A stretch of DNA of 64,000 bases. It comes from an uncultured Phycisphaerae bacterium. Lineage in GTDB: Bacteria > Planctomycetota > Phycisphaerae > SM23-33. The stretch covers positions 12,663 through 76,662 of the forward strand of contig CAVXDC010000030.1 of the NCBI GenBank assembly GCA_963760365.1. Direction: 5' to 3'. Shown piece after piece: positions 4,363 through 43,207 of this stretch (positions are counted from its first letter, which is position 1; each line of letters begins with the position of its first letter). The translations under genes were made by a program, and so were the position numbers. A model generated the notes under the pieces. It was not told where the DNA came from. It did not search any database and saw only the letters and a list, made by a program, of their open reading frames with translations.

Positions 4363-5448
4363 ATGAAGCTTCCGGTACGCAACGCCAAGGGCGGGAAGCT
4401 GAAGGCCATCGAGGTGGATGACCAGGTGTTCGGCATCAAGCCGAACATGGCGGTGATCCACCAGGCCTTCCTGGCCCAGATGGCCAATCGGCGGGCGGGC
4501 AGCGCCAGCACCAAGAGCCGGGGCGAGGTGCGTGGCAGCACCGCCAAGGTTCGCGCCCAGAAGGGGAGCGGCCGCGCCCGCCAGGGCAGCGCTCGCGCCC
4601 CTCACCGACGGGGCGGCGGCGTCGCCTTCGGGCCAAAGCCGCGCAGCTATCGCCAGGCCTTGCCCAAGCGTATGAAGCGCCTGGCCATCCGCTCGGTGCT
4701 ATCGGGCAAGGTGGCCGACGGTCAGCTGTCGGTGGTGAACGAGCTGTCGCTGGAGAAGCCGCGCACCAAGGAGATCGCGGGCTTGCTGGACGAGCCTGGG
4801 CATCGAGCGCTCGGCCCTCATCGTCACCGGCGACGCCGACCGGAGCGTGCATGCCAGCGCCCGCAACCTGGCGCGGACCAAGGTCCTGCCCGCCGCCTAC
4901 CTGAACGTCGTGGACATGCTCACCCATCGCGACCTGGTGATGACGGTGGCGGCGGTGCGCCGCTGCGAGGAGCTGTGGGGCGGCGACCATGCGCCCGGCG
5001 GCGGCGGCCGCTGCCCGCTGGCCGCCGTGGCGCCACCGGCGGCGCGCCGCAGAAGGAAAGCGAAGACCGTCGAAGAGGTCGTCCCGGAGGAGGCGGTGCC
5101 GGAGGCGAAGGCCCCGCGCCGCACAAGGAAGGCGAAGGCCGTCGAAGACGCCGCCCCGAAGGCGGAGGCGGTGCCGGAGGCGGAGAGGGCGCCGGAGGCG
5201 AAGGCCCCGCGCCGCACAAGGAAAGCGAAGGCCGTCGAAGACGCCGCCGAAGGCGGAGGCGGTGCCGGAGGCGAGAGGGCGCCGGAGGCGAAGGCGGTGC
5301 CGGAGGCGGAGCGGGCGCCGGCGGCGGAAGGGCGCCGGCGGCGAAGGCCCCGCGCCGCGTCCGGAAGGCGAAGGTCGTCGAAGACATCGCCGCCGGAGGC
5401 AGAGGCGGCGCCGAGCGAGCACCGCCGCTGAAGCAGGAGGCGAGCTAG
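4363..5448 (+). CDS. rplD: 50S ribosomal protein L4 with a long K/A/E/P-rich repetitive C-terminal extension (frameshifted)
   Basis: The L4 core is [75 protein letters not shown], continuing after a frameshift near 4795 as [25 protein letters not shown]. About 180 codons of [16 protein letters not shown]-type repeats follow. The exact end is uncertain (5431 or 5448, depending on frame). Confidence 0.8.
5040..5410 (+). repeat. tandem coding repeat (93-bp period between the two best copies) inside the rplD 3' extension
   Basis: GAAGGCCCCGCGCCGCACAAGGAA(G/A)GCGAAGGCCGTCGAAGACGCCGCC occurs at 5107 and again at 5200. Degenerate copies start near 5044 and 5343. Copy 2 differs from copy 1 by small indels (-2 and -1 nt) that locally scramble the frame. 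Confidence 0.8.
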
Positions 5449-5449
5449 G

Positions 5450-5748
5450 ATGCCCAAGGCCATTCACCCCTTCGACGGTGATCCGGCAGCCGCTGGTGAC
5501 GGAGAAGGGCACCTATCTGGCGGCTGAGAACAAGTACGCCTTTCGGGTGGACCAGCTGGCCAACAAGACACAGATCAAGCAGGCGGTGGAGAAGACCTTC
5601 AACGTGCAGGTGGTGGCGGTCAACGTGATGAACGTGCGGGGCAAGCAGCGCCGCTGGGGCCGACGCACGACCGCTGCGGCCGGCCTGGAAGAAGGCCATC
5701 GTGACCCTGGCCCCAGGCGACAAGATCGAGCTGTTCGAGGGCGTGTAG
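5450..5748 (+). CDS. rplW: 50S ribosomal protein L23 (two frameshifts)
   Basis: ATG at 5450 follows [65 protein letters not shown] is in a second frame, and [21 protein letters not shown] (stop 5746-5748) is in a third. Confidence 0.88.
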
Positions 5749-5750
5749 AG

Positions 5751-6583
5751 ATGGGTATCAAGCAGTACAAGCCCACCTCTCCCGGCCGGCGCGGCGCGAC
5801 CGGCCAGACCTTCGAGGAGATCACCAAGCACAAGCCGGAGAAGGCGCTGACGGTGCCCCTGAAGAGGAAGGCGGGTCGCAACGCCCAGGGGCGCGTCACC
5901 GTGCGCCATCGCGGCGGCGGCGCCAAGCGGCAGCTCCGCATCATCGACTTCAAGCGGGACAAGTTCGGTGTGCCGGGCAAGGTGGCGGCCATCGAGTATG
6001 ACCCCAACCGCTCGGCGCGCATCGCCCTCATCCACTACGCCGACGGCGACAAGCGCTACATCCTCTGGCCGGTGGGCCTGAAGGTGGGCGATACGGTCAT
6101 GTCGGGCCCGGAGGCGGAGATCCGGCCGGGCAACGCCCTGCCCCTGAAGAACATCCCGCTGGGCACGGCGGTGCACAACGTGGAGCTGTACTTGAAGCGC
6201 GGCGGCCAGATGGTGCGCAGCGCCGGCTCTTCGGCCCAGCTGATGGCCAAGGAGGGGGACTACGTGCTGCTGCGCCTGCCCTCGGGGGAGGTGCGCAAGG
6301 TGCTGGCCGACTGCATGGCCACCATCGGCCAGGTGGGCAACGTAGAGCACAGCCAGATCAAGCTCGGCCGCGCCGGCCGGTCGCGCCTGCATGGGGCGGC
6401 GGCCCGCAGGTGCGCGGCTCGGCCATGAACCCGCGCGATCACCCCCACGGCGGCGGCGAGGGCAAGGCGGCCATCGGTATGCCCGGGCCCAAGACACCCT
6501 GGGGCAAGCCGGCCTTGGGGTATCGCACCCGCCGCCGCAAGGACACGGACAAGTACATTGTGCGACGGCGCGGACAGAAGTAG
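5751..6583 (+). CDS. rplB: 50S ribosomal protein L2 (two frameshifts near 6390-6406)
   Basis: [80 protein letters not shown], then MGRRP, then [37 protein letters not shown] (stop 6581-6583), in three frames. Confidence 0.92.
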
Positions 6584-6593
6584 GGGGTAGGTC

Positions 6594-6890
6594 TTGTCCA
6601 GATCGACAAAGAAGGGGCCGTTCGTGGACGCCAAGCTGATGAAGAGGGTGGAGGCGGTCCAGCGCTCCGGCCAGAAGGCGATCATCCGCACTTGGTCGCG
6701 GGCCTCCACCATCATGCCCCAGATGGTGGGCATGACCATCGCCGTCTACGACGGCCGGCGCCACGTGCCCATCTTCATCACCGAGAACATGGTCGGCCAC
6801 CGCCTGGGCGAGTTCGCCCTGACGCGCACCTTCCGCGGCCACGCCGGTCGCTCGGAGCGAGCCACCCAGGTGCGCCGCCGACGTAGGTAT
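6594..6890 (+). CDS. rpsS: 30S ribosomal protein S19 (stop codon not in frame as assembled; reads through into rplV)
   Basis: [76 protein letters not shown]. The nearest stops (TAG 6884, TGA 6890) are in another frame, so the 3' end is approximate. Confidence 0.85.
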
Positions 6891-6896
6891 GAACGA

Positions 6897-7238
6897 ATGC
6901 AGGTGAAAGCCGTCGCCAGGAACGTAGCGCGTATCGCCCAGGAAGGTACGCCTCATCCTCGAGCACCTGCCCGGCCGGCGGGTGGACGAGGTGCTGGCCC
7001 GCCTGCGCTTCCTCCCTTCGCCTCACGCGCGAGTGGTGGCCAAGGCGGTGCAGTCGGCGGCGGCCAACGCCGAGAACAACTACCAGATGGACCCGCGCTT
7101 CCTGAAAGTGGTGGCCGCCTACGCCGGCGACGCGCTGCGCCTGAAGCGCTGGCGCGCGCGCGCCCGCGGCCGCGCTTCTCGCCGTCGTGCGACGGCGCAG
7201 CCCACATCACGGTCGTGGTGGAGGAGATGGAGGGCTAG
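6897..7238 (+). CDS. rplV: 50S ribosomal protein L22 (frameshifted)
   Basis: [10 protein letters not shown].., then [65 protein letters not shown] in frame 6982, then [11 protein letters not shown] in frame 6594. There are at least 2 frame changes. Confidence 0.88.
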
Positions 7239-19530: not shown

Positions 19531-20595
19531 TTAGCCTTCCGTCTGGGCCTGCATCTCCTGGATGGCCGCGGCCGCCCCGCGCTTGCCGACCAGCACCAGC
19601 GTGTCGCCACCGGCGAGCTTCAGGTCGGGGGTGGGTTGGTAAATCGCCTCCCCGTCCGCCCGCCGCACGGCCACCACCTGCACGCCCGCCCGGCGGGGTA
19701 AGGCAAGTTCGCGAAGCGTCTTGCCGCACAGGCTGCACTGCTCGGTCAGGACGAGTTGGTCCATCTCCAGGTCGATGCCCCGGTGGGCCATCTCCACGAA
19801 GTCCACCACCGCCGGTCGGAGCACCATGTCGCTGACCTGCATGGCTCCCAGCGTCTCGGGGCAGACCACGCGCGAGGCCCCGGCGGCCGCGAGCTTATCC
19901 TGTGTGGTCGGCTGCTCTGCGCGGGCGACGATGCGGACCCGGCCATTAGCCTGGCGGGCAGTGAGCGTCACGAAGACGTTCTCCGCGTCCGTCGGCAGCA
20001 TGGCCACCAGAACCTTGGCCCGCGTGACCCCGGCCGCTTGGAGCGTGCCTTCGTCCTGGGCGTCGCCGAGGACGTACAGAAGGCCCTTTTCCTGGGCCGC
20101 CGTGGTGCGGGAGGCATCGCTATCCACCACGACCACATCGCGCCGGGCGGCCTGGAGTTCCCGAGCGACCAAGGCACCCATGTTCCCGTACCCGCAGAGG
20201 ATGACGTGCCCTTCGAGTCCCGCAATCTTGCGTTCCAATTGTCGTCTCCCAAATATTGCTCTTACCTCGCCTTCCACGACCGCGCCCACGGCCATGGTGA
20301 GCACGACCGTGCCAATGACCAGTCCTGTCAGCACAACGAACATTGTCCAGACCCGGCCAATGTCATTCAGGGGCTTAACCTCGTGGAACCCCACGGTCGT
20401 CACGGTGATGATGGTCATGTACAGAGAATCCAGCCAGCCATAACCCTCGGCCAGTAGACGGTAACCCAGAGAGGAGATGAAGATAAATACCACTAAGATA
20501 GCAAGGGCCGCTGCCAGCCGACGTCGCCAACGGTATCTGCCTCCGGCCCGTTGCCTTGAAGATTTCCAGGGCGTGTCCGACCCACCAGGGTTCAT
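19531..20595 (-). CDS. two-TM potassium channel with cytoplasmic RCK (TrkA-N/TrkA-C) domains, MthK-like
   Basis: Intact 354 aa. The pore region is YMTIITVTTVGFHEV. The Rossmann-type motif is HVILCGYGNMGALVAREL. The C-terminal TrkA-C-like segment is GKTLRELALPRRAGVQVVAVRR. Confidence 0.8.
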   Translation of the reverse strand: MNPGGSDTPWKSSRQRAGGRYRWRRRLAAALAILVVFIFISSLGYRLLAEGYGWLDSLYMTIITVTTVGFHEVKPLNDIGRVWTMFVVLTGLVIGTVVLTMAVGAVVEGEVRAIFGRRQLERKIAGLEGHVILCGYGNMGALVARELQAARRDVVVVDSDASRTTAAQEKGLLYVLGDAQDEGTLQAAGVTRAKVLVAMLPTDAENVFVTLTARQANGRVRIVARAEQPTTQDKLAAAGASRVVCPETLGAMQVSDMVLRPAVVDFVEMAHRGIDLEMDQLVLTEQCSLCGKTLRELALPRRAGVQVVAVRRADGEAIYQPTPDLKLAGGDTLVLVGKRGAAAAIQEMQAQTEG

Positions 20596-28591: not shown

Positions 28592-29896
28592 TCAACGCTT
28601 CCTCAGCATCGTGTAGGGGCCGTCGGGGATGATGGCGATTCGCGCATCGGGCCGGGTGACCAGAAATGAGTCGATGGCCTTTTGCGCCCGCTGCTGGGCG
28701 TTGCCGGGTCCGAGGATGGGCGTCACGGCGATATGCTTTTGCCTCTGGGCCTCCAGGCCGTCGCTGACGAACCACAAGCGCTCCTGCCCGATCCGCGCCA
28801 GGACCTTGGCCTGCATCTGGAACTCCCATTGGTCGAGCTGGGTCTGGTCGCTGGCGGCGATGTCAGAAAGAAACGTCCGCCAATCGTTGTCGTATTGCCG
28901 CATCAGCTCCGTGTACGCGGATGAGCCGAGCTGCTCGCCGCAGTGGGAGGCGATCAGGAGCGTGGAGTCCTCCGCCAGCGCCGGCAAGGCCGTGCACAGG
29001 CCCTTGACGGTCTGATAGAAGGTCTGGTCCAGCGGGAAGCCCCCGCCGTTGGTGATGACCAAATCGAACGGCCCGTCGATGGCGGCCGAGGTCCACTCTC
29101 CCACGTCGCGGCAACCGGCCAGGTGCGCCTGCTCCAGGTCGCCGCAGTAGACCCCGGCGATCCGTCGGTCGCGCGTGATGGCCACGTTGAGCAGAAAGTC
29201 CACCCCCACAGCCTTGGCGACCTTCAGGGCAATCTCGTGGCAGGGGTTGCCTTCCAGGATGCCGTTGTCGGCCTTGGGGTGCGAGAGCGTCGCATAGCCG
29301 TGGAACCGCTGCACGGTGGCCAGGTCCACCAGCGCCGGACAGACGCCCTTGCGCCCCCCGGAGTACCCGGCCATGAAATGCGGCTCGATGTACCCGGTCA
29401 CGATCCGCAGGTCCGCGGTGGCGAAGCGCCGGCAGACGCTGACGGGCGGGGAGTCGCTGACCTTCACCAGCGTGGAGGAATCGTCGCCCCGATGGTCGAT
29501 CACCTCCAGCCGCCGCAGCAAGTCGCCGCCCAGCATCAGCTCGCGCTCTCCGGCCGTGCTGGGCCGGTGCAGCCCCGTGCCGATGATGACGACGATCTGC
29601 CGATCGGCCACGCCGGCGGCGTTCAGCACCTCAAGTAAGGGTGGGAGAAAAACCCTGTTGGGCACCGGCCGGGTGATGTCGGAGATGGTGATGGCCACGG
29701 TCGAAGGATTTTTGGCGGCGACGATCTGTGAGAGGGGCTTGCTGCCGATGGGCGCCGCAAGGGCCGCCTTCACCTCGGCCTGCGGGTTGGGCAGGGCGGG
29801 GACAGTCTTGCCCTCCAGCACGGCCGCCGAATCCGGCACGGCCAGCGCCATCCCTTCCCTGCCGTAGAGCATCTTGATCGTCTTGGTCTTGCCCAT
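28592..29896 (-). CDS. larA: LarA-like nickel-pincer-dependent 2-hydroxyacid racemase/epimerase (DUF2088 family)
   Basis: Intact 434 aa. The central block is GYIEPHFMAGYSGGRKGVCPAL, which parallels the LarA cofactor-tethering GG(R)K lysine region as I recall it. GNPCHE follows downstream. It is divergent from the BMC-associated pduS-like gene. Confidence 0.7.
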   Translation of the reverse strand: MGKTKTIKMLYGREGMALAVPDSAAVLEGKTVPALPNPQAEVKAALAAPIGSKPLSQIVAAKNPSTVAITISDITRPVPNRVFLPPLLEVLNAAGVADRQIVVIIGTGLHRPSTAGERELMLGGDLLRRLEVIDHRGDDSSTLVKVSDSPPVSVCRRFATADLRIVTGYIEPHFMAGYSGGRKGVCPALVDLATVQRFHGYATLSHPKADNGILEGNPCHEIALKVAKAVGVDFLLNVAITRDRRIAGVYCGDLEQAHLAGCRDVGEWTSAAIDGPFDLVITNGGGFPLDQTFYQTVKGLCTALPALAEDSTLLIASHCGEQLGSSAYTELMRQYDNDWRTFLSDIAASDQTQLDQWEFQMQAKVLARIGQERLWFVSDGLEAQRQKHIAVTPILGPGNAQQRAQKAIDSFLVTRPDARIAIIPDGPYTMLRKR

Positions 29897-30074
29897 AGCC
29901 TCACCCGGATTGGGTTCCTAAGATTAGTCTATCCGATTCCCCCCCTGCCGCCCAAGGCCGGCGGCGGGCGTGCCGAATGTCCCGACAACCTCTCAGCGCC
30001 TTGTTTGGGTGGAGGCGATTCGCTATACACGAATTGGAAGAGCGGCCGGAGGATTCCGGCCCGGATAACAACCG

Positions 30075-31406
30075 ATGTCAACCGTTACCGTCGATACGAT
30101 CTGCTCTGCGGGCGTGGTGGGGGCCGGCGGGGCGGGCTTTCCCACGCACGTCAAGCTCTCGAGCCAGGTCGACACGGTCCTGATTAACGCCGCCGAGTGC
30201 GAACCCCTGCTCCACAAGGACAAGGAGGTCCTCAAGGAGCACGCCGACGCGGTGCTGGCCGGCCTGGCGGCGGCCATGGAACTGACCGGGGCCAAGCGCG
30301 GCGTCATAGGCATCAAGGAAAAATACGGGGACGTCATCGAGCTGCTCCGCCCCAAGCTCGGCCGCGGCATGGACATCGCCCCGCTGGCCGACGTCTACCC
30401 GGCCGGGGATGAGTTCATCTTAGTCTATGACGTGCTGGGAAGAGTCGTGCCGCCGGGGGGCATCCCGCTGAACGTCTCTGCGGTGGTGATCAACGTCGAG
30501 ACGGCCTTGAACGTCGCCCTTTCTTCTTCTCGTCCGGTGACCGAGAAATATCTCTCCATCGCCGGGGCGGTGGCCGAGCCGGTCACGCTTCGCGTGCCGG
30601 TGGGCATCTCGCTGGCGGAGTGCGTCGTCGCCGCCGGCGGGCCGACGGTGAGCGACGCCAACTACCTCGTCGGCGGCGTGATGATGGGCTTTCTGGAGGA
30701 AAACCACCAAGCCATGGTGGACAAGACCACCGGGGGCGTGATCGTGCTGCCCAGCCGGAACATCGTCGTGCGGCGGCGGCGACAGGATTGGAGGCAGGTC
30801 CAGCGGATCGGGCGAAGCGCCTGCGACCAGTGCGTCTTCTGCACCGAGCTGTGCCCGCGCTACCTGCTGGGCCATCCCATCGAGCCGCACCGGGCGATGC
30901 GCAGCCTGCAATTCACGCTGATCGGCGAGCCGAACGTCCAGGGCACGGCCTTCTGCTGCGAGTGCAACCTGTGCAGCCTGTATGCGTGCCCGGAGGACCT
31001 GGACCCCAAGAACGTCTGCGCAGAAAACAAGCACCGCCGGGCGAAAGAAAAGAAGCGATGGGATCATCCCCCCTTCAACCCAGACCGCCCCGCCTTGCTC
31101 CTGGCCGGCCGCAAGGCGCCCATGCAGCGGCTGATGCAGAAGCTGGGTCTGGCGGGCTACCGCAACGTCGGGCCGATGAAGCCCGGCCTGCTCGCGACGC
31201 GCAAGGTGGGCATCAAGCTCAAGCAGCACGCAGGCGCGCCCTGCGAGCCGACGGTCCAGGTCGGCCAGGCGGTCAAGATTGGTCAGGAGGTCGGCCGGCT
31301 GCCGAACACCAACGGCAGACCCGCCCTGGGGGCGCCCGTGCACGCCTCCATCGACGGGGTCGTCTCGGCTATTACCGATGGCGCCGTGTGGATCGAAAAG
31401 AAATGA
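30075..31406 (+). CDS. PduS/RnfC-like NAD(P)H-binding Fe-S flavoprotein
   Basis: Intact 443 aa. The N-terminus is GVVGAGGAGFPTHVKL (RnfC/PduS nucleotide-binding motif). Two ferredoxin-type clusters are present: CDQCVFCTELCP and CCECNLCSLYACP. A barrel-like C-terminal domain follows. It lies directly upstream of a PduT-like shell gene. Confidence 0.75.
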   Translation: MSTVTVDTICSAGVVGAGGAGFPTHVKLSSQVDTVLINAAECEPLLHKDKEVLKEHADAVLAGLAAAMELTGAKRGVIGIKEKYGDVIELLRPKLGRGMDIAPLADVYPAGDEFILVYDVLGRVVPPGGIPLNVSAVVINVETALNVALSSSRPVTEKYLSIAGAVAEPVTLRVPVGISLAECVVAAGGPTVSDANYLVGGVMMGFLEENHQAMVDKTTGGVIVLPSRNIVVRRRRQDWRQVQRIGRSACDQCVFCTELCPRYLLGHPIEPHRAMRSLQFTLIGEPNVQGTAFCCECNLCSLYACPEDLDPKNVCAENKHRRAKEKKRWDHPPFNPDRPALLLAGRKAPMQRLMQKLGLAGYRNVGPMKPGLLATRKVGIKLKQHAGAPCEPTVQVGQAVKIGQEVGRLPNTNGRPALGAPVHASIDGVVSAITDGAVWIEKK

Positions 31407-31422
31407 ACCAGGACCCAGACCC

Positions 31423-32001
31423 ATGACTTCCAACGCACAGTCCCTTTCCCAAAGAGCGATCGGCGCGGTGGAGCTTTCCAGCATCGGCGTCGGCTACCAG
31501 GTGCAGGATGAGATGCTCAAGGCCGCCACCGTGCGGCTGCTGGTGGCCCGGACGATCTGCTCGGGAAAGTACTTCATCGTCGTCGGGGGTACAGTCAGCG
31601 ACGTGCAGTCGTCCGTCGAGGCCGCTCTGCGGTCGGCCGAGGAGGCGATCATCGATCAGGTGGTGATCCCCAACGTGCACGAGTCGGTCTTCGCCGCCTT
31701 GGGCCAATCGGTCGTCCTGGTTCCAGGACAGGCGGCGGCCCTGGGGGTGGTGGAGAGCTTCAGCGGCGTGAGCATCATCGCCGCCGCCGATGCCGCCGCC
31801 AAGGCAGCCAATGTGACGCTGTTCCGCATCCACGTGGCCATGGCGCTGGGGGGTAAGGGGTTCTGCCTGCTGACCGGCACGGTGGCCGATGTGCGGGCCG
31901 CCGTCCAGGCCGCCGCCGAAGAGGTCCGCCGCCGAGGGTTGCTTGTCAGCCAGATCGTCATCCCCCAGCCCAGTCCGGAACTGTTCAGCGAATATATCTG
32001 A
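31423..32001 (+). CDS. BMC-T shell protein, tandem BMC domains, PduT-like
   Basis: 192 aa with two BMC-fold halves: AIGAVELSSIGVGYQVQDEMLKAATVRLLVARTICSGKYFIVVGGTVSDV, and ALGVVESFSGVSIIAAADAAAKAANVTLFRIHVAMALGGKGFCLLTGTVADV. The Cys in TICSGK aligns with the PduT [4Fe-4S]-ligand Cys in TICPGK, recalled from memory. Confidence 0.75.
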   Translation: MTSNAQSLSQRAIGAVELSSIGVGYQVQDEMLKAATVRLLVARTICSGKYFIVVGGTVSDVQSSVEAALRSAEEAIIDQVVIPNVHESVFAALGQSVVLVPGQAAALGVVESFSGVSIIAAADAAAKAANVTLFRIHVAMALGGKGFCLLTGTVADVRAAVQAAAEEVRRRGLLVSQIVIPQPSPELFSEYI

Positions 32002-36352: not shown

Positions 36353-37852
36353 GTGGCGATGCATCGGGAGCTTGCCATGACTCAGACAGCGATTGACGAA
36401 ACACTGGTCCGGCAGATGGTCGAGCAGGTGCTGGGGCACATCCAGACCGGTTGGGGCGGCCGGTCGGCCCCGGCGGCCGGGAAGGGCGCTGCGGCGCCGA
36501 TCACGACCTCGGCCGCGGCGGTGAGAAATAAGTTCGGCCAGTTCACGGACGTCAACGAGGCCGTCGAGGCCGCCAAGGCAGCCCAGAGGGCGCTGGCCCG
36601 CCGGTCGCTCGCCCAGCGGGAACAGGCCTGCCAGCTCATCCGCAAGATCATCTCCGAGCAGGCCCAGGAATTGGGCCGGATGGAGTATGAAGAGACGCGG
36701 ATCGGCCATCCGCCGCACAAGCCCATCAAGCTCCAGCTCGTGGCGCGCCTGGCTGCCGGCGTCGAAGGCCTGGCCACCGAGTGCTTCAGCGGCGACCACG
36801 GCATCACGCTGGACGAGCACGGGCCATGGGGCGTGATCGGCGTGGCCACGCCCGTCACGCACTCCCTGCCCACGCTGGCCAACAACGCCGTGAACATGAT
36901 TGCCGCGGGCAACAGCCTGGTGTGCAATCCGCATCCGGGCGGCAAGAAGATCGCCGCGTACGGCGCCAAGCTGTTCAACCAGGCCATCTACGAGCTTCTA
37001 GGCATCGACAATCTCATCTGCGTCATTACCGCCCCGACGCTGGAGACGGCCAACGCCATCTTCCAGCATCCCGACATCCGCCTGCTGACCGTCACGGGCG
37101 GCATGGGCGTGGTGGCGGCGGCGCTGCGGTCGGGCAAGCGGGCCATCTGCGCCGGTCCGGGCAACCCGCCGGTCGTGGTGGATGCCTCGGCCGAGCTGGC
37201 CAACGCCGCCCGGTGCATCCTGGAGGGCGCCAGCTTTGACAACAACCTGCTGTGTTTGTCCGAAAAGGAGGCCTTCGTCGAGGCGGCGGTCTTCGAGCCG
37301 ATGATGGAGGCGATGACCAAGGTCGGCGCCTGCCGCCTCAGCCCCCCGCAGATGGACGCCTTGGCCAAGGTCTGCATCGAGCCGGCCAAGGACCACGACC
37401 ACCCCCTGGCCAGCCGAAAGTTCGTCGGGGCCGAGCCGCAGACCCTTGCCCGTCAGATCGGGCTGAACGTCCCGGCCGACTGCCGGCTGCTTTTCGGCCA
37501 GACCGACCTGATGCACCCGTTCGTTCAGGCCGAGCAGATGATGCCGGTGCTGCCGTTCGTGAAGTGCGAGAGCTTCGAGCAGGCCGTGGAGTACGCCCTT
37601 CAGGCTGAGCACGGCTTCGGCCACACGGCCGTCATCCACAGCCGGCTGGTGGACCACATGACGTACATGGGCAAGGCGATGGACACCACCATCTACGTCA
37701 AGAACGGGCCTTCGCTGGCGGGCGACTCGGCCGGCGGGGAGGGCCACGGCAACTTCTCCGTCGCCTGCTCCACCGGCGAGGGCATTGTGACCCCGCTGAC
37801 CTTCACGCGGTTTAGGCGCTGCTGCATGGTGGACAATTTGCGGATCGTCTAA
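36353..37852 (+). CDS. CoA-acylating aldehyde dehydrogenase (PduP/EutE-like) with N-terminal encapsulation-peptide-like helix
   Basis: Intact about 490-499 aa: GPWGVIGVATPVTHSLPT, VCNPHPGG, AICAGPGNPPVVVD, FDNNLLCLSEKE (catalytic Cys) and HGFGHTAVIHS. The N-terminus is IDETLVRQMVEQVLGHI. The start is 36353 or 36377. Confidence 0.88.
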   Translation: MAMHRELAMTQTAIDETLVRQMVEQVLGHIQTGWGGRSAPAAGKGAAAPITTSAAAVRNKFGQFTDVNEAVEAAKAAQRALARRSLAQREQACQLIRKIISEQAQELGRMEYEETRIGHPPHKPIKLQLVARLAAGVEGLATECFSGDHGITLDEHGPWGVIGVATPVTHSLPTLANNAVNMIAAGNSLVCNPHPGGKKIAAYGAKLFNQAIYELLGIDNLICVITAPTLETANAIFQHPDIRLLTVTGGMGVVAAALRSGKRAICAGPGNPPVVVDASAELANAARCILEGASFDNNLLCLSEKEAFVEAAVFEPMMEAMTKVGACRLSPPQMDALAKVCIEPAKDHDHPLASRKFVGAEPQTLARQIGLNVPADCRLLFGQTDLMHPFVQAEQMMPVLPFVKCESFEQAVEYALQAEHGFGHTAVIHSRLVDHMTYMGKAMDTTIYVKNGPSLAGDSAGGEGHGNFSVACSTGEGIVTPLTFTRFRRCCMVDNLRIV

Positions 37853-37876: not shown

Positions 37877-38131
37877 ATGCTGCTGGCCATGGTCGAAGGA
37901 AGCGCGATAACGACGATCAAGCATCCCTCCCTGAAGGGCTGGAAGTTGTTGGTCGTCCAGCCGCTGGACATCGAAGGCCGGCCTGACGGGGACATAATCA
38001 TGGCGATCGACATGTTGGGCGCGGGCGTGGGCACCAAGGTGGTGATAAGCAATGACGGCCGAAGCGCCCAGGAAATGGTCGGTGACGAGCGCAGCCCGCT
38101 CCGCTGGACGGTGATAGGGATCGTGGACTGA
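37877..38131 (+). CDS. BMC-P vertex protein (EutN/CcmL family)
   Basis: MLLAMVEGSAITTIKHPSLKGWKLLVVQPLD...MAIDMLGAGVGTKVVISNDG...RWTVIGIVD. Confidence 0.88.
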   Translation: MLLAMVEGSAITTIKHPSLKGWKLLVVQPLDIEGRPDGDIIMAIDMLGAGVGTKVVISNDGRSAQEMVGDERSPLRWTVIGIVD

Positions 38132-38136
38132 GGAAG

Positions 38137-38982
38137 GTGTGCCGGACCTTGGATAAGGAACTAGTCAACCAGGTGACCGAACAGGTGATCCAGATGCTCC
38201 GCCGACAGGGCGTGACGATCCCTGCTGCCGCTGTGGTTCCACCGGAGGTCTTGCCCTCGTCGGTCGGCGTTGCGCCGTCGGCTACTGGGCCCGTCAAGAG
38301 GGCCACCGCTCCGCCTGCCGGGCGGGTCTTTGTGACGGCGGAGGTGCTTCGCCAACGGATCGCTGCCGCGGGGGGCGGCGGCGGTATCGAGTTAGGCTGC
38401 AATGAGTTTCTCACGCCCAACGCCGTCGATTTGGCCGAGCAGAGACGGCTGACCATCCGCCGGACGACCTGCCCGGGGTTACCGGCCCAGGCTGCCCCGA
38501 TGGGCGCGGGAACTAGCGTTGCAGCGGCGCCTGTCCGTCAGGCCGAGCCGAAAGGTGCGTGCGGGATGATCGGCCTGGTCGTCTATCGGGCCGACGAGAA
38601 GGTCCGCAACGTGCTGGCGGGTCTGCCCCACGACGGCGTGGCCGTGACAGACTTCACCCAAGGAGATTGCTGGATGGCGGACCTGCGGCGGTTGTGCCAG
38701 GCCGTCGTCACCGGCCAGGTGGCCTCCGGGGCGGCCATCCTGCCGTATGGAGCCAACGCGATGGTCCTGGCAGGCAAGATCAAGGGCATCCGTCCCGTGC
38801 AGGGCACTCGGCCCGAGAGCGTGGCGGCGGCGCTGCGGCACTTCGGCGCCAACCTGCTGGTGTTGGAACACGCCTTCAGCACTTACCACCCGATGCGTTC
38901 GATGCTCCGCATCCTGGCGGCCGGGGGGCCGGGGGCGAATGCGGCGCTGAAGGCGGCGCTAGAGGAACTAGAAAGGTCCTGA
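38137..38982 (+). CDS. BMC-associated protein: encapsulation-peptide-like N-terminus plus degenerate RpiB/LacAB-like C-terminal domain
   Basis: Intact 281 aa. The N-terminus is LDKELVNQVTEQVIQMLRRQG. The C-terminal half is IGLVVYRAD..AAILPYGANAMVLAGKIKGIRPVQGTRPESVAAALRHFGANLLVLEHAF. This parallels RpiB GILICGTGIGMSIAANKxxGIRAA..NDxNVLxxG, but the CGTG Cys and the N-terminal DH pair are not conserved (alignment from memory). The start is GTG 38137 or TTG 38149. Confidence 0.55.
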   Translation: MCRTLDKELVNQVTEQVIQMLRRQGVTIPAAAVVPPEVLPSSVGVAPSATGPVKRATAPPAGRVFVTAEVLRQRIAAAGGGGGIELGCNEFLTPNAVDLAEQRRLTIRRTTCPGLPAQAAPMGAGTSVAAAPVRQAEPKGACGMIGLVVYRADEKVRNVLAGLPHDGVAVTDFTQGDCWMADLRRLCQAVVTGQVASGAAILPYGANAMVLAGKIKGIRPVQGTRPESVAAALRHFGANLLVLEHAFSTYHPMRSMLRILAAGGPGANAALKAALEELERS

Positions 38983-38987
38983 GCGAT

Positions 38988-39296
38988 ATGCGTGTTTCGC
39001 GTGTCATAGGAAAGGTCACGCTCAACCGCAGGATGGCCGAGCTCCAGCCGGGCAGCTACCTGATCGTTCGGCCTTACGACCGCGGGGCGCTGGTGGGCAA
39101 GAACCCCGGCAGCATGGAGGAGTCCATCGTGGTCTACGACATCCTGGCCGCCCGGGAGGGCGACCTGGTGGGGATGGTCGAAGGCCGCGAGGCGTCCATG
39201 CCGTTCCGCCCCGCCAGGGTTCCCTTTGACGCCTATAACGCCTGCATTCTGGACGCCATCGACTTCCAGCCCGTGCTGGAATTGCCGCGGACCTAG
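38988..39296 (+). CDS. BMC-P vertex protein (EutN/CcmL family)
   Basis: MRVSRVIGKVTLNRRMAELQPGSYLIVRPYD...VVYDILAAREGDLVGMVEGREA...DAYNACILDAID. Confidence 0.8.
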   Translation: MRVSRVIGKVTLNRRMAELQPGSYLIVRPYDRGALVGKNPGSMEESIVVYDILAAREGDLVGMVEGREASMPFRPARVPFDAYNACILDAIDFQPVLELPRT

Positions 39297-39318: not shown

Positions 39319-40311
39319 ATGCACAATATGGCCAGCGAGTTTGAACTCAAAAAGCTGATCTGCGACATCGGCCGGCGGATGTACGACAAGGGTTTCGTGG
39401 CCGCCAACGACGGGAACATCTCTTGCCGCGTCGGCAAGGGCCGGTTCCTGTGCACGCCGACGTTGATGTCCAAGGGGTTCCTGCGGCCGGCCGACATCGC
39501 CGTGGTGGACGACAAGGGCAGGCAGCTGGAAGGCCCGCTGGCCCGCACCAGCGAGATCCTGCTGCACCTGGAGATCTACCACGAGCTGAGCGAGATCAAC
39601 GCCGTCTGCCACGCCCACCCGCCCTACGCGACGGCGTTCGCCGTGGCCGGCATCGACGTGCCCTCCAACATCCTGCCGGAGGTGGAAATCTTCATCGGCC
39701 AGGTGCCCATCGCCGAGTACGAGACCCCCGGCGGGGAGGGCGTCGCCAAGACGCTCCTGCCGCACCTCCGCCGCAAGGCCAACACCATCCTGCTGGCCAA
39801 CCACGGGGCGGTCGCCTGCGACAAGACGCTGGAGCAGGCCTTCTTCCACTTAGATACGCTGGATATGTACTGCCGCATCCTGCTGCTGAGCAAGGAGGTG
39901 GGCAACATTCGCCAGCTCCCCCCGGAAAAGGTGCGGGAATTGCTGGCCATCAAGAAGAGCCTGGGCATCGCCGATCCGCGCATGGACGGCCAGGAGGTGG
40001 CCGCCCTGGCTGGCAGCGATGAGTTCCTGCGGGGCTTTTCGACGCGAGCGATCCCCCAGCACACCGCCGACGCCAACGGCCACGGCCGAGGGCAGGGCAT
40101 CGCCGGCCAGCCTTCCCAGGCCGGCCAGGCCCAACCGCTGCCGGCGGGGCGACAGCTCTTTCCTGCGATGGTGGATGGTCGGGTCCTGCCCGGCCCTGAC
40201 GGCATGGGTGCCAGCAGCGAGACCGCCCGCCGCCGCAGCCTGGAAGACCAGACCGAGCGACTAGTCCAGATCATCACCGACCGCATCGTCCAGATCGGTA
40301 GCGGTAGCTAG
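39319..40311 (+). CDS. class II aldolase (fuculose/rhamnulose-1-phosphate aldolase-like) with C-terminal encapsulation-peptide-like helix
   Basis: ANDGNISCRV, SEILLHLEIYHE, AVCHAHPPYATAF and LLANHGAVACD are the metal-binding His pattern of class II aldolase/adducin. A ~100-aa low-complexity linker follows, ending LEDQTERLVQIITDRIVQIGSGS*. Confidence 0.88.
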   Translation: MHNMASEFELKKLICDIGRRMYDKGFVAANDGNISCRVGKGRFLCTPTLMSKGFLRPADIAVVDDKGRQLEGPLARTSEILLHLEIYHELSEINAVCHAHPPYATAFAVAGIDVPSNILPEVEIFIGQVPIAEYETPGGEGVAKTLLPHLRRKANTILLANHGAVACDKTLEQAFFHLDTLDMYCRILLLSKEVGNIRQLPPEKVRELLAIKKSLGIADPRMDGQEVAALAGSDEFLRGFSTRAIPQHTADANGHGRGQGIAGQPSQAGQAQPLPAGRQLFPAMVDGRVLPGPDGMGASSETARRRSLEDQTERLVQIITDRIVQIGSGS

Positions 40312-41395
40312 GACGGTTCTTGGGGCGGGGGCGGGATTGACGGCGGGGGTTCCAGGCCCCGGGCGGTGCGGAGCGTCTCGATCTTGTCCAGCGGCTTTTG
40401 CAGGGCATTGCTCCGCAGGCCGCGGAGGGTCTCGAACTGCTTGGCGGTGGAGTCAATCCGCTGGCCGAGCTTGTCCAGCTCCTCGTTGTACCTTTGCCAC
40501 TGTCGGTAGAACTCGCCCAGCAGCGTGGCCACCTCATCGGCGGTCTTTAGGACGTTGGCGTTCTCGGCCGCCTGGCGGATGACCGACAGCATCGCATACA
40601 GCGTCAGGGGGCTGGCCAGCACTACCTGCTTGGATAAGGCTTCATCGATCAGGTCGGCCTGGGCCTCCAGGACCAGCGAGAAGATCTGCTCACTGGGCAG
40701 AAAGACGATGACGTAGTTGACCGTCGGCACGGCCGGGTCGATGTAGCCCCGCTTGGCGACGGCCTGGACGTGCCCGCGGACGGCAGCGACCAACTGCTCC
40801 AGATGCTCGGCCCGCTGGGCGTCGCTGTCGGCATCCAGGTAGGCCTTGTATCGCTCCAGGGGGAACTTGACGTCCATGTTCAATTTCAGCTCGTTGGGCA
40901 GCAGGAAGGTGAAGTCGGGCCGGCCGGCCTCGGCGTCGTCGGACGACTGCCGTACGTAGTTGACACCCTCCTGCATGCCGACCAGGCGCAGCACGTCCTG
41001 GGCCATTCGCTCGCCCCAGGCCCCGCGGCGCTGCGTGCTGGCCAGCATCCGATGGAGTTCCCCCGTCGTCGCCGCCAGCGACGACACCGAGCTGCTGAGC
41101 TGGCCGAAGTCCTGGCGGCGGGTGGACTCGACCTGCTGGAGGAAGCTGCGGACCTGCTCCAGGCGCCCGGAGACGTCCTGGAGGGTCTGGTCGATCAGCG
41201 CCTTGCGCCCGTCCAGGAGGGCGGCAGCCGATTCGCTTAGCCGGCGGCTGTTGGCGTCCAGCGCCTCGGCCGCGATCAAGGCGAACATCTGGCGCATCTG
41301 CGCCTCGGCCGCCCGGCGCGGAGGTGCGCCACCACCAGGGCGATCGCCGCTCCCAACACGGCGCCCAGGGCAAACCCCACGACGAAGTAAATCAT
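40308..41395 (-). CDS. rmuC: DNA recombination protein RmuC (one frameshift near 41310)
   Basis: The N-terminal TM helix MIYFVVGFALGAVLGAAIALVV follows GGGAGGTGGAGC. Then comes a coiled-coil and the RmuC nuclease-like core, RPDFTFLLPNELKLNMDVKFPLERY..VIVFLPSEQIF. Its TAG stop shares the palindromic CTAG with the convergent aldolase stop. Confidence 0.8.
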
Positions 41396-41529
41396 GCTCC
41401 ACCTCCCTTACCAGGGGCATTGTACGCCCGCGTCCGCCGGGAGGAAAAGTCGGAACCTCCGCGGGTAAGCATCTCCCTGCGGACGCGGGAAAGATTTCCT
41501 TCGATACGAGAGGAGCCGCCGAAAGAGTC

Positions 41530-43207
<1,678 letters not shown>

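Follow-up and report, generated by a model that had tools for sequence, protein, structure and literature searches.

Few metabolosome types are as abundant in environmental Planctomycetota and Verrucomicrobiota as the PVM (Planctomycetes-Verrucomicrobia) microcompartments, which process the fucose and rhamnose of algal polysaccharides. The 64,000-nucleotide stretch of DNA analysed here (the window) comes from an uncultured Phycisphaerae bacterium; on its plus strand lies a complete locus for a bacterial microcompartment (BMC) of the PVM type. Our subject is a single gene of that locus, the open reading frame (ORF) at 38137-38982, whose product is shown below to be the locus component PvmL, a protein with an RpiB/LacAB isomerase fold from which the catalytic residues have gone. 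We argue that this pseudoenzyme probably, though far from securely, serves in assembly rather than catalysis, by linking the enzyme core of the organelle to its shell.

The locus and its gene

The first part of the locus encodes, in order, a PduS-like Fe-S flavoprotein, a tandem-BMC shell protein, a DeoR regulator, PduL, two BMC-H proteins and acetate kinase; the second part encodes a third BMC-H, a BMC-P, an acylating aldehyde dehydrogenase, a second BMC-P, the product of ORF 38137-38982, a further BMC-P and a class II aldolase (Table 1). An earlier note on this DNA, made from the letters alone, had placed the gene between two BMC-P genes, and PF03319 matches on both sides agree; the spacing is 5 nt from the upstream BMC-P gene to the ORF and 5 nt from the ORF to the downstream one. 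The TTG at 38149 is a likelier start codon than the GTG at 38137 and would give a product of 277 amino acids beginning M-D-K-E-L-V-N. Homologues begin at the residue aligned with Leu5, and a GGAAGG sequence lies at 38132-38137, just 5' of the TTG; for these two reasons we take 38149 to be the probable true start.

Table 1. Features of the PvmL-family gene, its neighbours in the window and the related E. coli K-12 segments. pLDDT, predicted local distance difference test; EP, encapsulation peptide
Feature	Coordinates	Strand	Basis
PvmL-family gene	38137..38982	+	ORF list and translation; 281 codons from GTG 38137
Predicted N-terminal amphipathic, EP-like helix DKELVNQVTEQVIQMLRR	38152..38208	+	AlphaFold2 helix 7-23, pLDDT ~90
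Pro/Ala-rich disordered linker 1	38209..38319	+	pLDDT <55; length and sequence variable among homologues
Conserved mini-domain, β-α-β-β-α-β, residues ~62-110 (~48 residues)	38320..38466	+	pLDDT >90; 83.9 when modelled alone
Disordered linker 2	38467..38559	+	pLDDT <50 (residues 119-135); mean pairwise identity 0.17
Degenerate RpiB/LacAB-fold domain, residues 142-281	38560..38982	+	PF02502, hhalign, Foldseek, residue mapping, family residue counts
Upstream BMC-P (PvmK position)	37877..38131	+	PF03319 E 8e-25; adjacent in all loci checked
Downstream BMC-P (PvmM position)	38988..39296	+	PF03319 E 1.3e-12; adjacent in all loci checked
Acylating aldehyde dehydrogenase (PvmJ position)	36353..37852	+	PF00171 E 8e-30; synteny
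Class II aldolase (PvmN position), signature enzyme, with long linker and C-terminal EP-like helix TERLVQIITDRIVQI	39319..40311	+	PF00596 E 1.5e-45
E. coli K-12 eutT and eutQ N-termini	L023:19163-19306 and 19861-20004	-	Mini-domain homology

Identity as PvmL

In Planctopirus limnophila the cluster order has been published as pvmABDEGHIJKLMNO (Erbilgin et al. 2014; catalogue of Sutter et al. 2021): PvmB is the phosphotransacylase (PTAC), PvmG the kinase, PvmJ the aldehyde dehydrogenase, PvmK and PvmM the BMC-P proteins, PvmN the aldolase and PvmO the dehydrogenase. The ORF in the window fills the PvmL slot, between the PvmK and PvmM BMC-P genes and 5' of the PvmN aldolase gene, and it is this synteny that identifies its product as PvmL. 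The order aldehyde dehydrogenase–BMC-P–X–BMC-P–class II aldolase, where X is the PvmL-family gene, was kept in every one of the 26 loci checked. Of these, 24 had been found via X (13 named loci from metagenome-assembled genomes of Planctomycetota, L001-L013, and 11 from other classes and families of the phylum, L025-L035) and two are 20-kb regions in Planctomycetia-like complete genomes, where the full arrangement reads DeoR-PduL-BMC-H-BMC-H-(AckA)-BMC-P-...-AldDH-BMC-P-X-BMC-P-aldolase, AldDH being the aldehyde dehydrogenase. X also lay directly 5' of the third BMC-P gene in all four loci that were picked independently via that gene.

At E ≤ 1e-3 the family comprises 161 representatives of clusters formed at 50% identity. 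Its profile matches the PvmL-position proteins of the Planctomycetia-like complete genomes over their full length, with E-values of 1e-20 to 1e-31; homology is thus established to PvmL-position proteins in complete Planctomycetota genomes, and P. limnophila PvmL itself, Plim_1747, is linked to the family by gene order. On these sequence matches and this gene order, ORF 38137-38982 is an orthologue of pvmL and a component of PVM fucose/rhamnose microcompartment loci, a membership that the earlier note had missed.

X evolves faster than any other gene of the block. Between close loci its product is 40-66% identical, against 66-86% for the enzymes; between distant loci the corresponding values are 26-36% and 41-59%. 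In-frame stops in some of the genome matches might have been read as signs of pseudogenes, a reading that we rejected, the stops arising where profile matches overrun intact ORFs. The PvmL of one Planctomycetia-like locus (L036; G173:C1, 6794-14553), a protein of 232 amino acids, matched no Pfam family whatsoever: the RpiB-like domain can decay that far.

Some features of the surrounding DNA may be mentioned here. DERA (deoxyribose-phosphate aldolase, PF01791) is not present in the window's PVM locus, the aldolase there being of class II, with a low-complexity Gly/Gln/Ala/Pro linker of ~100 residues before its C-terminal EP-like helix, far longer than in L036. No gene for a PvmO-type lactate/malate dehydrogenase was seen 3' of the aldolase gene, where an RmuC gene lies instead on the opposite strand (40308-41930, minus strand). 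Upstream of the locus core, at 28592-32001, are the PduS-like/tandem-BMC pair and a divergent LarA-like gene.

A degenerate RpiB/LacAB fold

The C-terminal ~140 residues of the protein form a genuine but degenerate RpiB/LacAB fold, as the earlier note had recognised from the sequence pattern. The profile search that it proposed gave a significant, if borderline, match to Pfam family PF02502 (24.8 bits against a gathering cut-off of 24.7; E 2.3e-5). When the C-terminal domain was compared by hhalign with an alignment of genuine RpiB proteins (those of E. coli and of this same genome together with seven planctomycete RpiBs), the probability of a match was 97.5% with the close homologues (E 5e-12) and 98.8% with the broad family (E 1e-16). 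The AlphaFold2 model, built with 28 homologues, has a pLDDT above 90 across residues ~144-265, and a Foldseek search of the PDB with this model returned 45 significant matches, all 45 of them to RpiB/LacAB-family structures (3he8, 2vvr, 1nn4, 1o1x, 1usl, 4lfk and others), with E-values of 4e-9 to 1e-6 and template modelling (TM) scores on the target of 0.7-0.86. Profile and fold searches were needed to establish the fold: whole-protein sequence searches against the PDB and NCBIfam gave weak RpiB matches, and the NCBIfam models for RpiB, LacA and LacB scored 15.2-15.3 bits, far under their curated cut-offs of 88-138.

Loss of the isomerase active site

Three independent alignments agree on the residue register between E. 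coli RpiB and the window protein, and on all three the catalytic residues are replaced, in line with what the earlier note had claimed: Cys66 has become Leu202, Gly67 Pro203, Thr68 Tyr204 and Asn100 Phe236. The phosphate ligands have gone too, with Arg110 replaced by Ala246, Arg133 by Ala267, His134 by Asn268 and Arg137 by Leu271, and the segment that carries Arg40 deleted. What is kept is Gly62 (Gly198), Lys78 (Lys214), Arg83 (Arg219), His99 (His235) and Asn103 (Asn239). The replacement of Asp9 and His10, which was part of the same claim, is less certain; by secondary-structure position the pair corresponds to Tyr150 and Arg151, and this N-terminal part of the mapping lies outside the hhalign coverage. 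The positions matching the mycobacterial-type catalytic glutamate are occupied by Ala208 and Met209. His251 and Arg254 were considered as possible equivalents of the phosphate ligands His134 and Arg137 and were rejected, the profile alignment pairing them with Glu115 and Lys118.

The substitutions are found elsewhere in the family. In an alignment of 95 family members, position 202 is leucine, valine or alanine in 83, aspartate in four and cysteine in one (that is, it is not cysteine in 94 of the 95), whilst position 236 is hydrophobic in every sequence and position 204 is tyrosine in 48. His235, the equivalent of His99, is kept in the window protein and in 38 of the 95. An acidic residue (Asp or Glu) occupies position 150 in 53 sequences, and histidine is not among the eight commonest residues at position 151. 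None of the phosphate-ligand positions (Arg40, Arg110, Arg133, Arg137 and His134) is conserved in this alignment, and the near-invariant polar residues of the pocket are Arg219 and Asn239 alone, both of which are also conserved in true RpiBs.

The window protein is not the housekeeping isomerase of this organism, since a canonical rpiB, with the motifs DH, CGSG, HN and GGGRHxRR, is present elsewhere in the genome. That gene is split over two contig ends, at C46:1297-1596 and C4:~122751-122939 (both minus strand); its halves overlap at 'GIRAALCHD[K/E]LTAQ', each continuing into unrelated sequence, which suggests a break or a chimeric join in the assembly rather than two genes.

Several JGI-derived homologues of the PvmL family (P0002-P0004, P0014, P0026, P0152, P0173 and P0174) carry the automated annotation 'ribose 5-phosphate isomerase RpiB'. 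Because the catalytic residues are missing, this label is probably a misannotation, one that could inflate pentose-phosphate pathway calls in metagenome-assembled genomes and that the present finding corrects.

The N-terminal helix and a mini-domain resembling the N-termini of EutT and EutQ

Ahead of the RpiB-like domain lie two further elements. The encapsulation-like N-terminal helix that the earlier note described is matched in the structural model by a predicted helix at residues 7-23, which is strongly amphipathic (hydrophobic moment 1.76, matched by 1.5% of shuffles) and has a pattern like those of the N-termini of PduL and the aldehyde dehydrogenase and of the C-terminus of the aldolase in the same locus. 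The predicted EP helix and the disordered linker that follows it are conserved among homologues, and an EP hidden Markov model for the PVM 'PvmL' family is included in the published catalogue (Sutter et al. 2021).

The second element is a mini-domain. The Gly-rich middle segment noted earlier is present, but forms a variable loop within this folded unit rather than a linker; the unit also includes the near-invariant T67 and L92-T93-P94-x-A96-x-D98. Conservation across the family peaks in the mini-domain, with Pro94 and Asp98 found in all 95 aligned sequences, Thr67 and Ala96 in 93, Thr93 in 90 and Leu92 in 87.

A likeness of the mini-domain to the N-terminus of EutT was tested on the E. coli K-12 eut operon. 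The mini-domain profile matches EutT residues 2-48 with a probability of 95.5% in hhalign (E 1.4e-8) and the EutT N-terminus with an E-value of 6e-8 in HMMER, and in a six-frame scan of the whole E. coli K-12 chromosome the EutT N-terminus was the sole significant match (E 4.8e-7). EutQ residues 2-46 match with a probability of 69.8% in hhalign; in HMMER, EutQ ranked second among the matches in the eut region, with a low score of 10.4 bits (E 0.12 at proteome size). These sequence comparisons make a strong case for homology with the N-terminus of EutT and a moderate one for homology with that of EutQ, neither of which was raised in the earlier note. Residues 1-50 of EutT and EutQ are themselves 34% identical without gaps and have in common the motif ...ITxxxxR....(L/I)TPxAR(E)....

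The mini-domain matches no Pfam family and, by sequence, no PDB entry. Modelled alone it gave no significant fold match in the PDB (best Foldseek E 0.46), and the mini-domain of a distant family member, used as the query in a word-indexed search, recovered itself alone. Within this genome the mini-domain was found in PvmL only, with neither a second copy nor a EutQ cupin (PF06249) detected; in the window protein itself no PF06249 cupin was found, the mini-domain being followed by a linker and the RpiB-like domain. No paper noting the EutQ shell-association module on EutT was found in the literature searched.

What is known of the corresponding part of EutQ comes from work in Salmonella, where residues 9-41 (H1/H2) are required for shell association, residues 62-99 are the binding site for the EPs carried by EutC and EutE, and the cupin at the C-terminus forms dimers; loss of the N-terminal region parts the shell from its cargo (bioRxiv 10.1101/2024.05.17.594633). 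Pull-down of EutM likewise needs the EutQ N-terminus (PMC4827028).

An inactive isomerase in SPU microcompartments

A precedent for an isomerase-fold protein of this sort, also missed in the earlier note, comes from microcompartments of the SPU (sugar-phosphate-utilising) type. The ribose 5-phosphate isomerase (RPI) of a Chloroflexi SPU6 locus, a PF02502 protein with an N-terminal EP and with Cys66 replaced by aspartate, has negligible activity as a ribose 5-phosphate isomerase and binds DERA in a complex of ~1:1 (Dwyer et al. 2024, PMC11585597). The authors suggested that the protein serves a structural purpose or helps in encapsulation, and fusions of DERA with RPI are found in nature; the published description of SPU RPIs mentions the EP and an unstructured linker of ~75 residues alone (PMC11585597).

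SPU/FRAG5-like loci occur in two other Planctomycetota, at L049 (G332:C134) 4569-6202 and L050 (G226:C32) 5289-6940, with the gene order BMC-P – RPI – BMC-P – BMC-P – DeoC/DERA – nucleoside phosphorylase. The RPI of these loci consists of an EP-like helix, a mini-domain like that of EutT and EutQ (E 1e-6 to 7e-9) and an RpiB domain (PF02502 E 7e-53) that is near-intact, with aspartate at position 66. The RpiB domain of PvmL has decayed much further than this, the architecture and the placement beside BMC-P genes being common to both.

PvmL as a probable shell–cargo linker

The earlier note had suggested a scaffold, or a gatekeeper for sugar phosphates, rather than an isomerase. Of these, a non-isomerase scaffold is the best reading, because PvmL is an EP-tagged RpiB fold that lacks the catalytic residues and is encoded inside a block of shell genes; the sugar-phosphate gatekeeper is unsupported, the phosphate ligands having been lost. 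That PvmL is a shell–cargo linker, a non-catalytic factor in assembly, is the conclusion to which we lean, with modest confidence.

We infer each of the binding steps in the model. The EP helix of PvmL would co-aggregate with the comparable helices that PduL, the aldehyde dehydrogenase and the aldolase carry, and the mini-domain, if the precedent of EutQ H1/H2 is followed, would dock on shell proteins. RpiBs are dimers or tetramers, and for this reason the RpiB-fold domain may supply oligomerisation and hence multivalency. By analogy with the inactive RPI of SPU microcompartments and its partner DERA, the same domain possibly also contacts the signature aldolase. PvmL would in this way be a domain-shuffled functional analogue of EutQ on a pseudo-isomerase base.

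A number of points weigh against this model. The shell-docking role is carried over from EutQ by analogy, through a similarity that is moderate (the 10.4 bits and E of 0.12 given above), and the strong homology is to the N-terminus of EutT, a segment to which no function has been assigned; the EP-binding helices H3/H4 of EutQ, moreover, have no counterpart in PvmL. DERA and the class II aldolase have unrelated folds, so that contact with the aldolase need not carry over. A bit-score test for a specific kinship between the PvmL domain and the SPU-type RPIs gave no signal, the domain being no closer to these than to housekeeping RpiBs; their common descent is plausible on the basis of shared architecture. 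The catalogue of Sutter et al. 2021 (Supplementary Data 6) files PvmL under PF02441 'Flavoprotein', an assignment that was not reproduced here. Finally, in the close, Phycisphaerae-type subfamily a set of polar residues is invariant at the C-termini of the strands (Tyr204, Gln222, Thr224, Arg225, Arg234, Glu244, His245, His251 and Arg254). These could mark a remodelled ligand-binding or catalytic pocket or, equally, a protein interface, and they are only partly conserved across the 95 sequences.

The other readings

The SPU precedent also lends itself to a narrower interpretation, in which the RpiB-fold domain is by analogy a non-catalytic subunit of the class II aldolase PvmN that stabilises, regulates or co-packages the enzyme and has no general link with the shell. 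The SPU RPI is inactive, binds its signature aldolase at ~1:1 and occurs naturally fused to it (PMC11585597), the Planctomycetota SPU-type RPIs have the architecture of PvmL, and in all the loci checked a single gene separates pvmL from the aldolase gene. Against this, DERA is a class I enzyme with a TIM barrel, structurally unrelated to the PF00596 class II aldolase, and the interface cannot simply have been inherited; the aldolase has a C-terminal EP of its own; and the high conservation of the EutT/EutQ-like mini-domain is left unexplained. We consider this interpretation unlikely.

The polar residues of the close subfamily bear on two further possibilities. In one, which the earlier note had raised in its gatekeeper form, a remodelled pocket would bind fuculose 1-phosphate, rhamnulose 1-phosphate or dihydroxyacetone phosphate (DHAP), PvmL acting as a ligand sensor or gatekeeper that retains or channels such compounds or modulates the organelle. 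The residues listed above, joined by Lys214 and Arg219, are invariant in the close subfamily and sit where the RpiB active site is located, and the His99 equivalent is retained in the window protein. All of the RpiB phosphate ligands are gone, however, the pocket residues vary across the 95 family members (Arg225 is found in 47, His235 in 38, Tyr204 in 48 and His251 in 53) and the gene evolves faster than every neighbour, all of which makes a sensor or gatekeeper distinctly improbable.

In the other, PvmL would be a neofunctionalised enzyme that catalyses a different reaction, for instance the aldose-ketose interconversion of a C3 compound (lactaldehyde/hydroxyacetone or triose phosphates) within the organelle, by way of Glu244, His245 and Tyr204. 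The Glu-His pair and the tyrosine are invariant at the strand ends in the close subfamily, Glu244 is widespread (74 of 95 sequences), and in mycobacterial RpiB the catalytic base can move to a glutamate (PMC11585597). In the PVM pathway as accepted, though, no isomerase step is lacking that such an enzyme could fill (PMC4207490, PMC6620236), and orthologues at the same locus position vary at the residues in question, with His245 replaced by tyrosine or proline and Tyr204 by serine, threonine or histidine. Canonical Planctomycetia PvmLs match PF02502 barely or not at all, and the fast rate of evolution is atypical of a core enzyme. An enzyme of this kind seems to us very improbable.

That PvmL might be a PF02441-type flavin-binding redox protein, as its listing as a PVM homologue of that family implies (Sutter et al. 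2021, Supplementary Data 6), is the least credible of the readings and was rejected: PF02441 and RpiB are both three-layer α/β/α folds between which weak cross-matches are conceivable, but PF02441 was not found in the window protein and two Planctomycetia PvmL-position proteins at E ≤ 10 or in ten distant members at E ≤ 0.1, PF02502 matches recur in the family instead, and all 45 significant Foldseek matches in the PDB are to RpiB/LacAB structures, with no flavoprotein among them.

Wider significance

That PvmL carries an EP has been catalogued already, and an inactive, EP-bearing RPI has been described for SPU microcompartments. In the literature searched we found no function for PvmL beyond the catalogue entry "flavoprotein". 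Nor, in a search that did not cover Erbilgin et al. 2014, did we find PvmL described as an RpiB-fold pseudoenzyme instead of a flavoprotein, the EutT/EutQ module reported on PvmL or on planctomycete SPU-type RPIs, or the hypothesis of a EutQ-like linker in PVM microcompartments. Taken together, the RpiB-fold pseudoenzyme, the architecture shared with the SPU RPI and the EutT/EutQ module make of an orphan gene the basis for a hypothesis of PVM assembly that can be tested, and genetic tools exist for P. limnophila (PMC11958385).

A broader proposal can be made, if tentatively and with more doubt than belief: PvmL and the SPU/FRAG5 RPIs might be members of one widespread group of RpiB-fold enzymes or pseudoenzymes that have been co-opted for microcompartment assembly, the mini-domain serving as a general shell-docking module across the unrelated metabolosome types EUT, PVM and SPU/FRAG. 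Were this true, the attachment of proteins to microcompartment shells could be predicted, and also engineered, by means of a single small domain.

Comparison with known systems

With the RpiB/LacAB enzymes (PF02502; E. coli RpiB, PDB 1nn4/2vvr) the window protein has fold and topology in common, and it keeps their motifs GxRxV and N-[VL]-L, Arg219 being equivalent to Arg83 and Asn239 to Asn103. It differs from them in its N-terminal extension of ~140 residues.

The PvmL of the P. limnophila PVM locus occupies the same slot in the same gene order and has an N-terminal EP, as does the window protein. That locus includes PvmO, in contrast to the locus in the window, which is without PvmO and has a PduS/PduT-like pair upstream.

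The RPI of SPU/FRAG5 microcompartments resembles PvmL in its RpiB fold, its N-terminal EP, its replacement of Cys66 and its position next to BMC-P and near a signature aldolase, and it too has no evident role for isomerase chemistry. The SPU-type RPI, however, keeps Asp9/His10, His99/Asn100 and GGGRHxxR, with Cys66 changed to aspartate, whereas PvmL has lost these motifs, has leucine at position 202 and reaches 24.8 bits with PF02502; and the partner of the SPU RPI is a class I DERA, whereas the aldolase of the PvmL locus is of class II.

The remaining comparison is with EutQ, the shell–cargo linker of the EUT system (Yang et al. bioRxiv 2024; Held et al. 2016). In EutQ the segment matching the mini-domain stands at the extreme N-terminus and is followed by the EP-binding helices H3/H4 and by a cupin with acetate kinase activity. 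PvmL, known here from its sequence, has instead an EP helix of its own ahead of the mini-domain and a pseudo-RpiB domain behind it. The two proteins nevertheless probably have in common a mini-domain, of moderate similarity between them, followed by a flexible region and a globular domain that dimerises in EutQ and may oligomerise in PvmL, and the role that we propose for PvmL, a bridge between the shell and EP-bearing cargo, is the same as that of EutQ.

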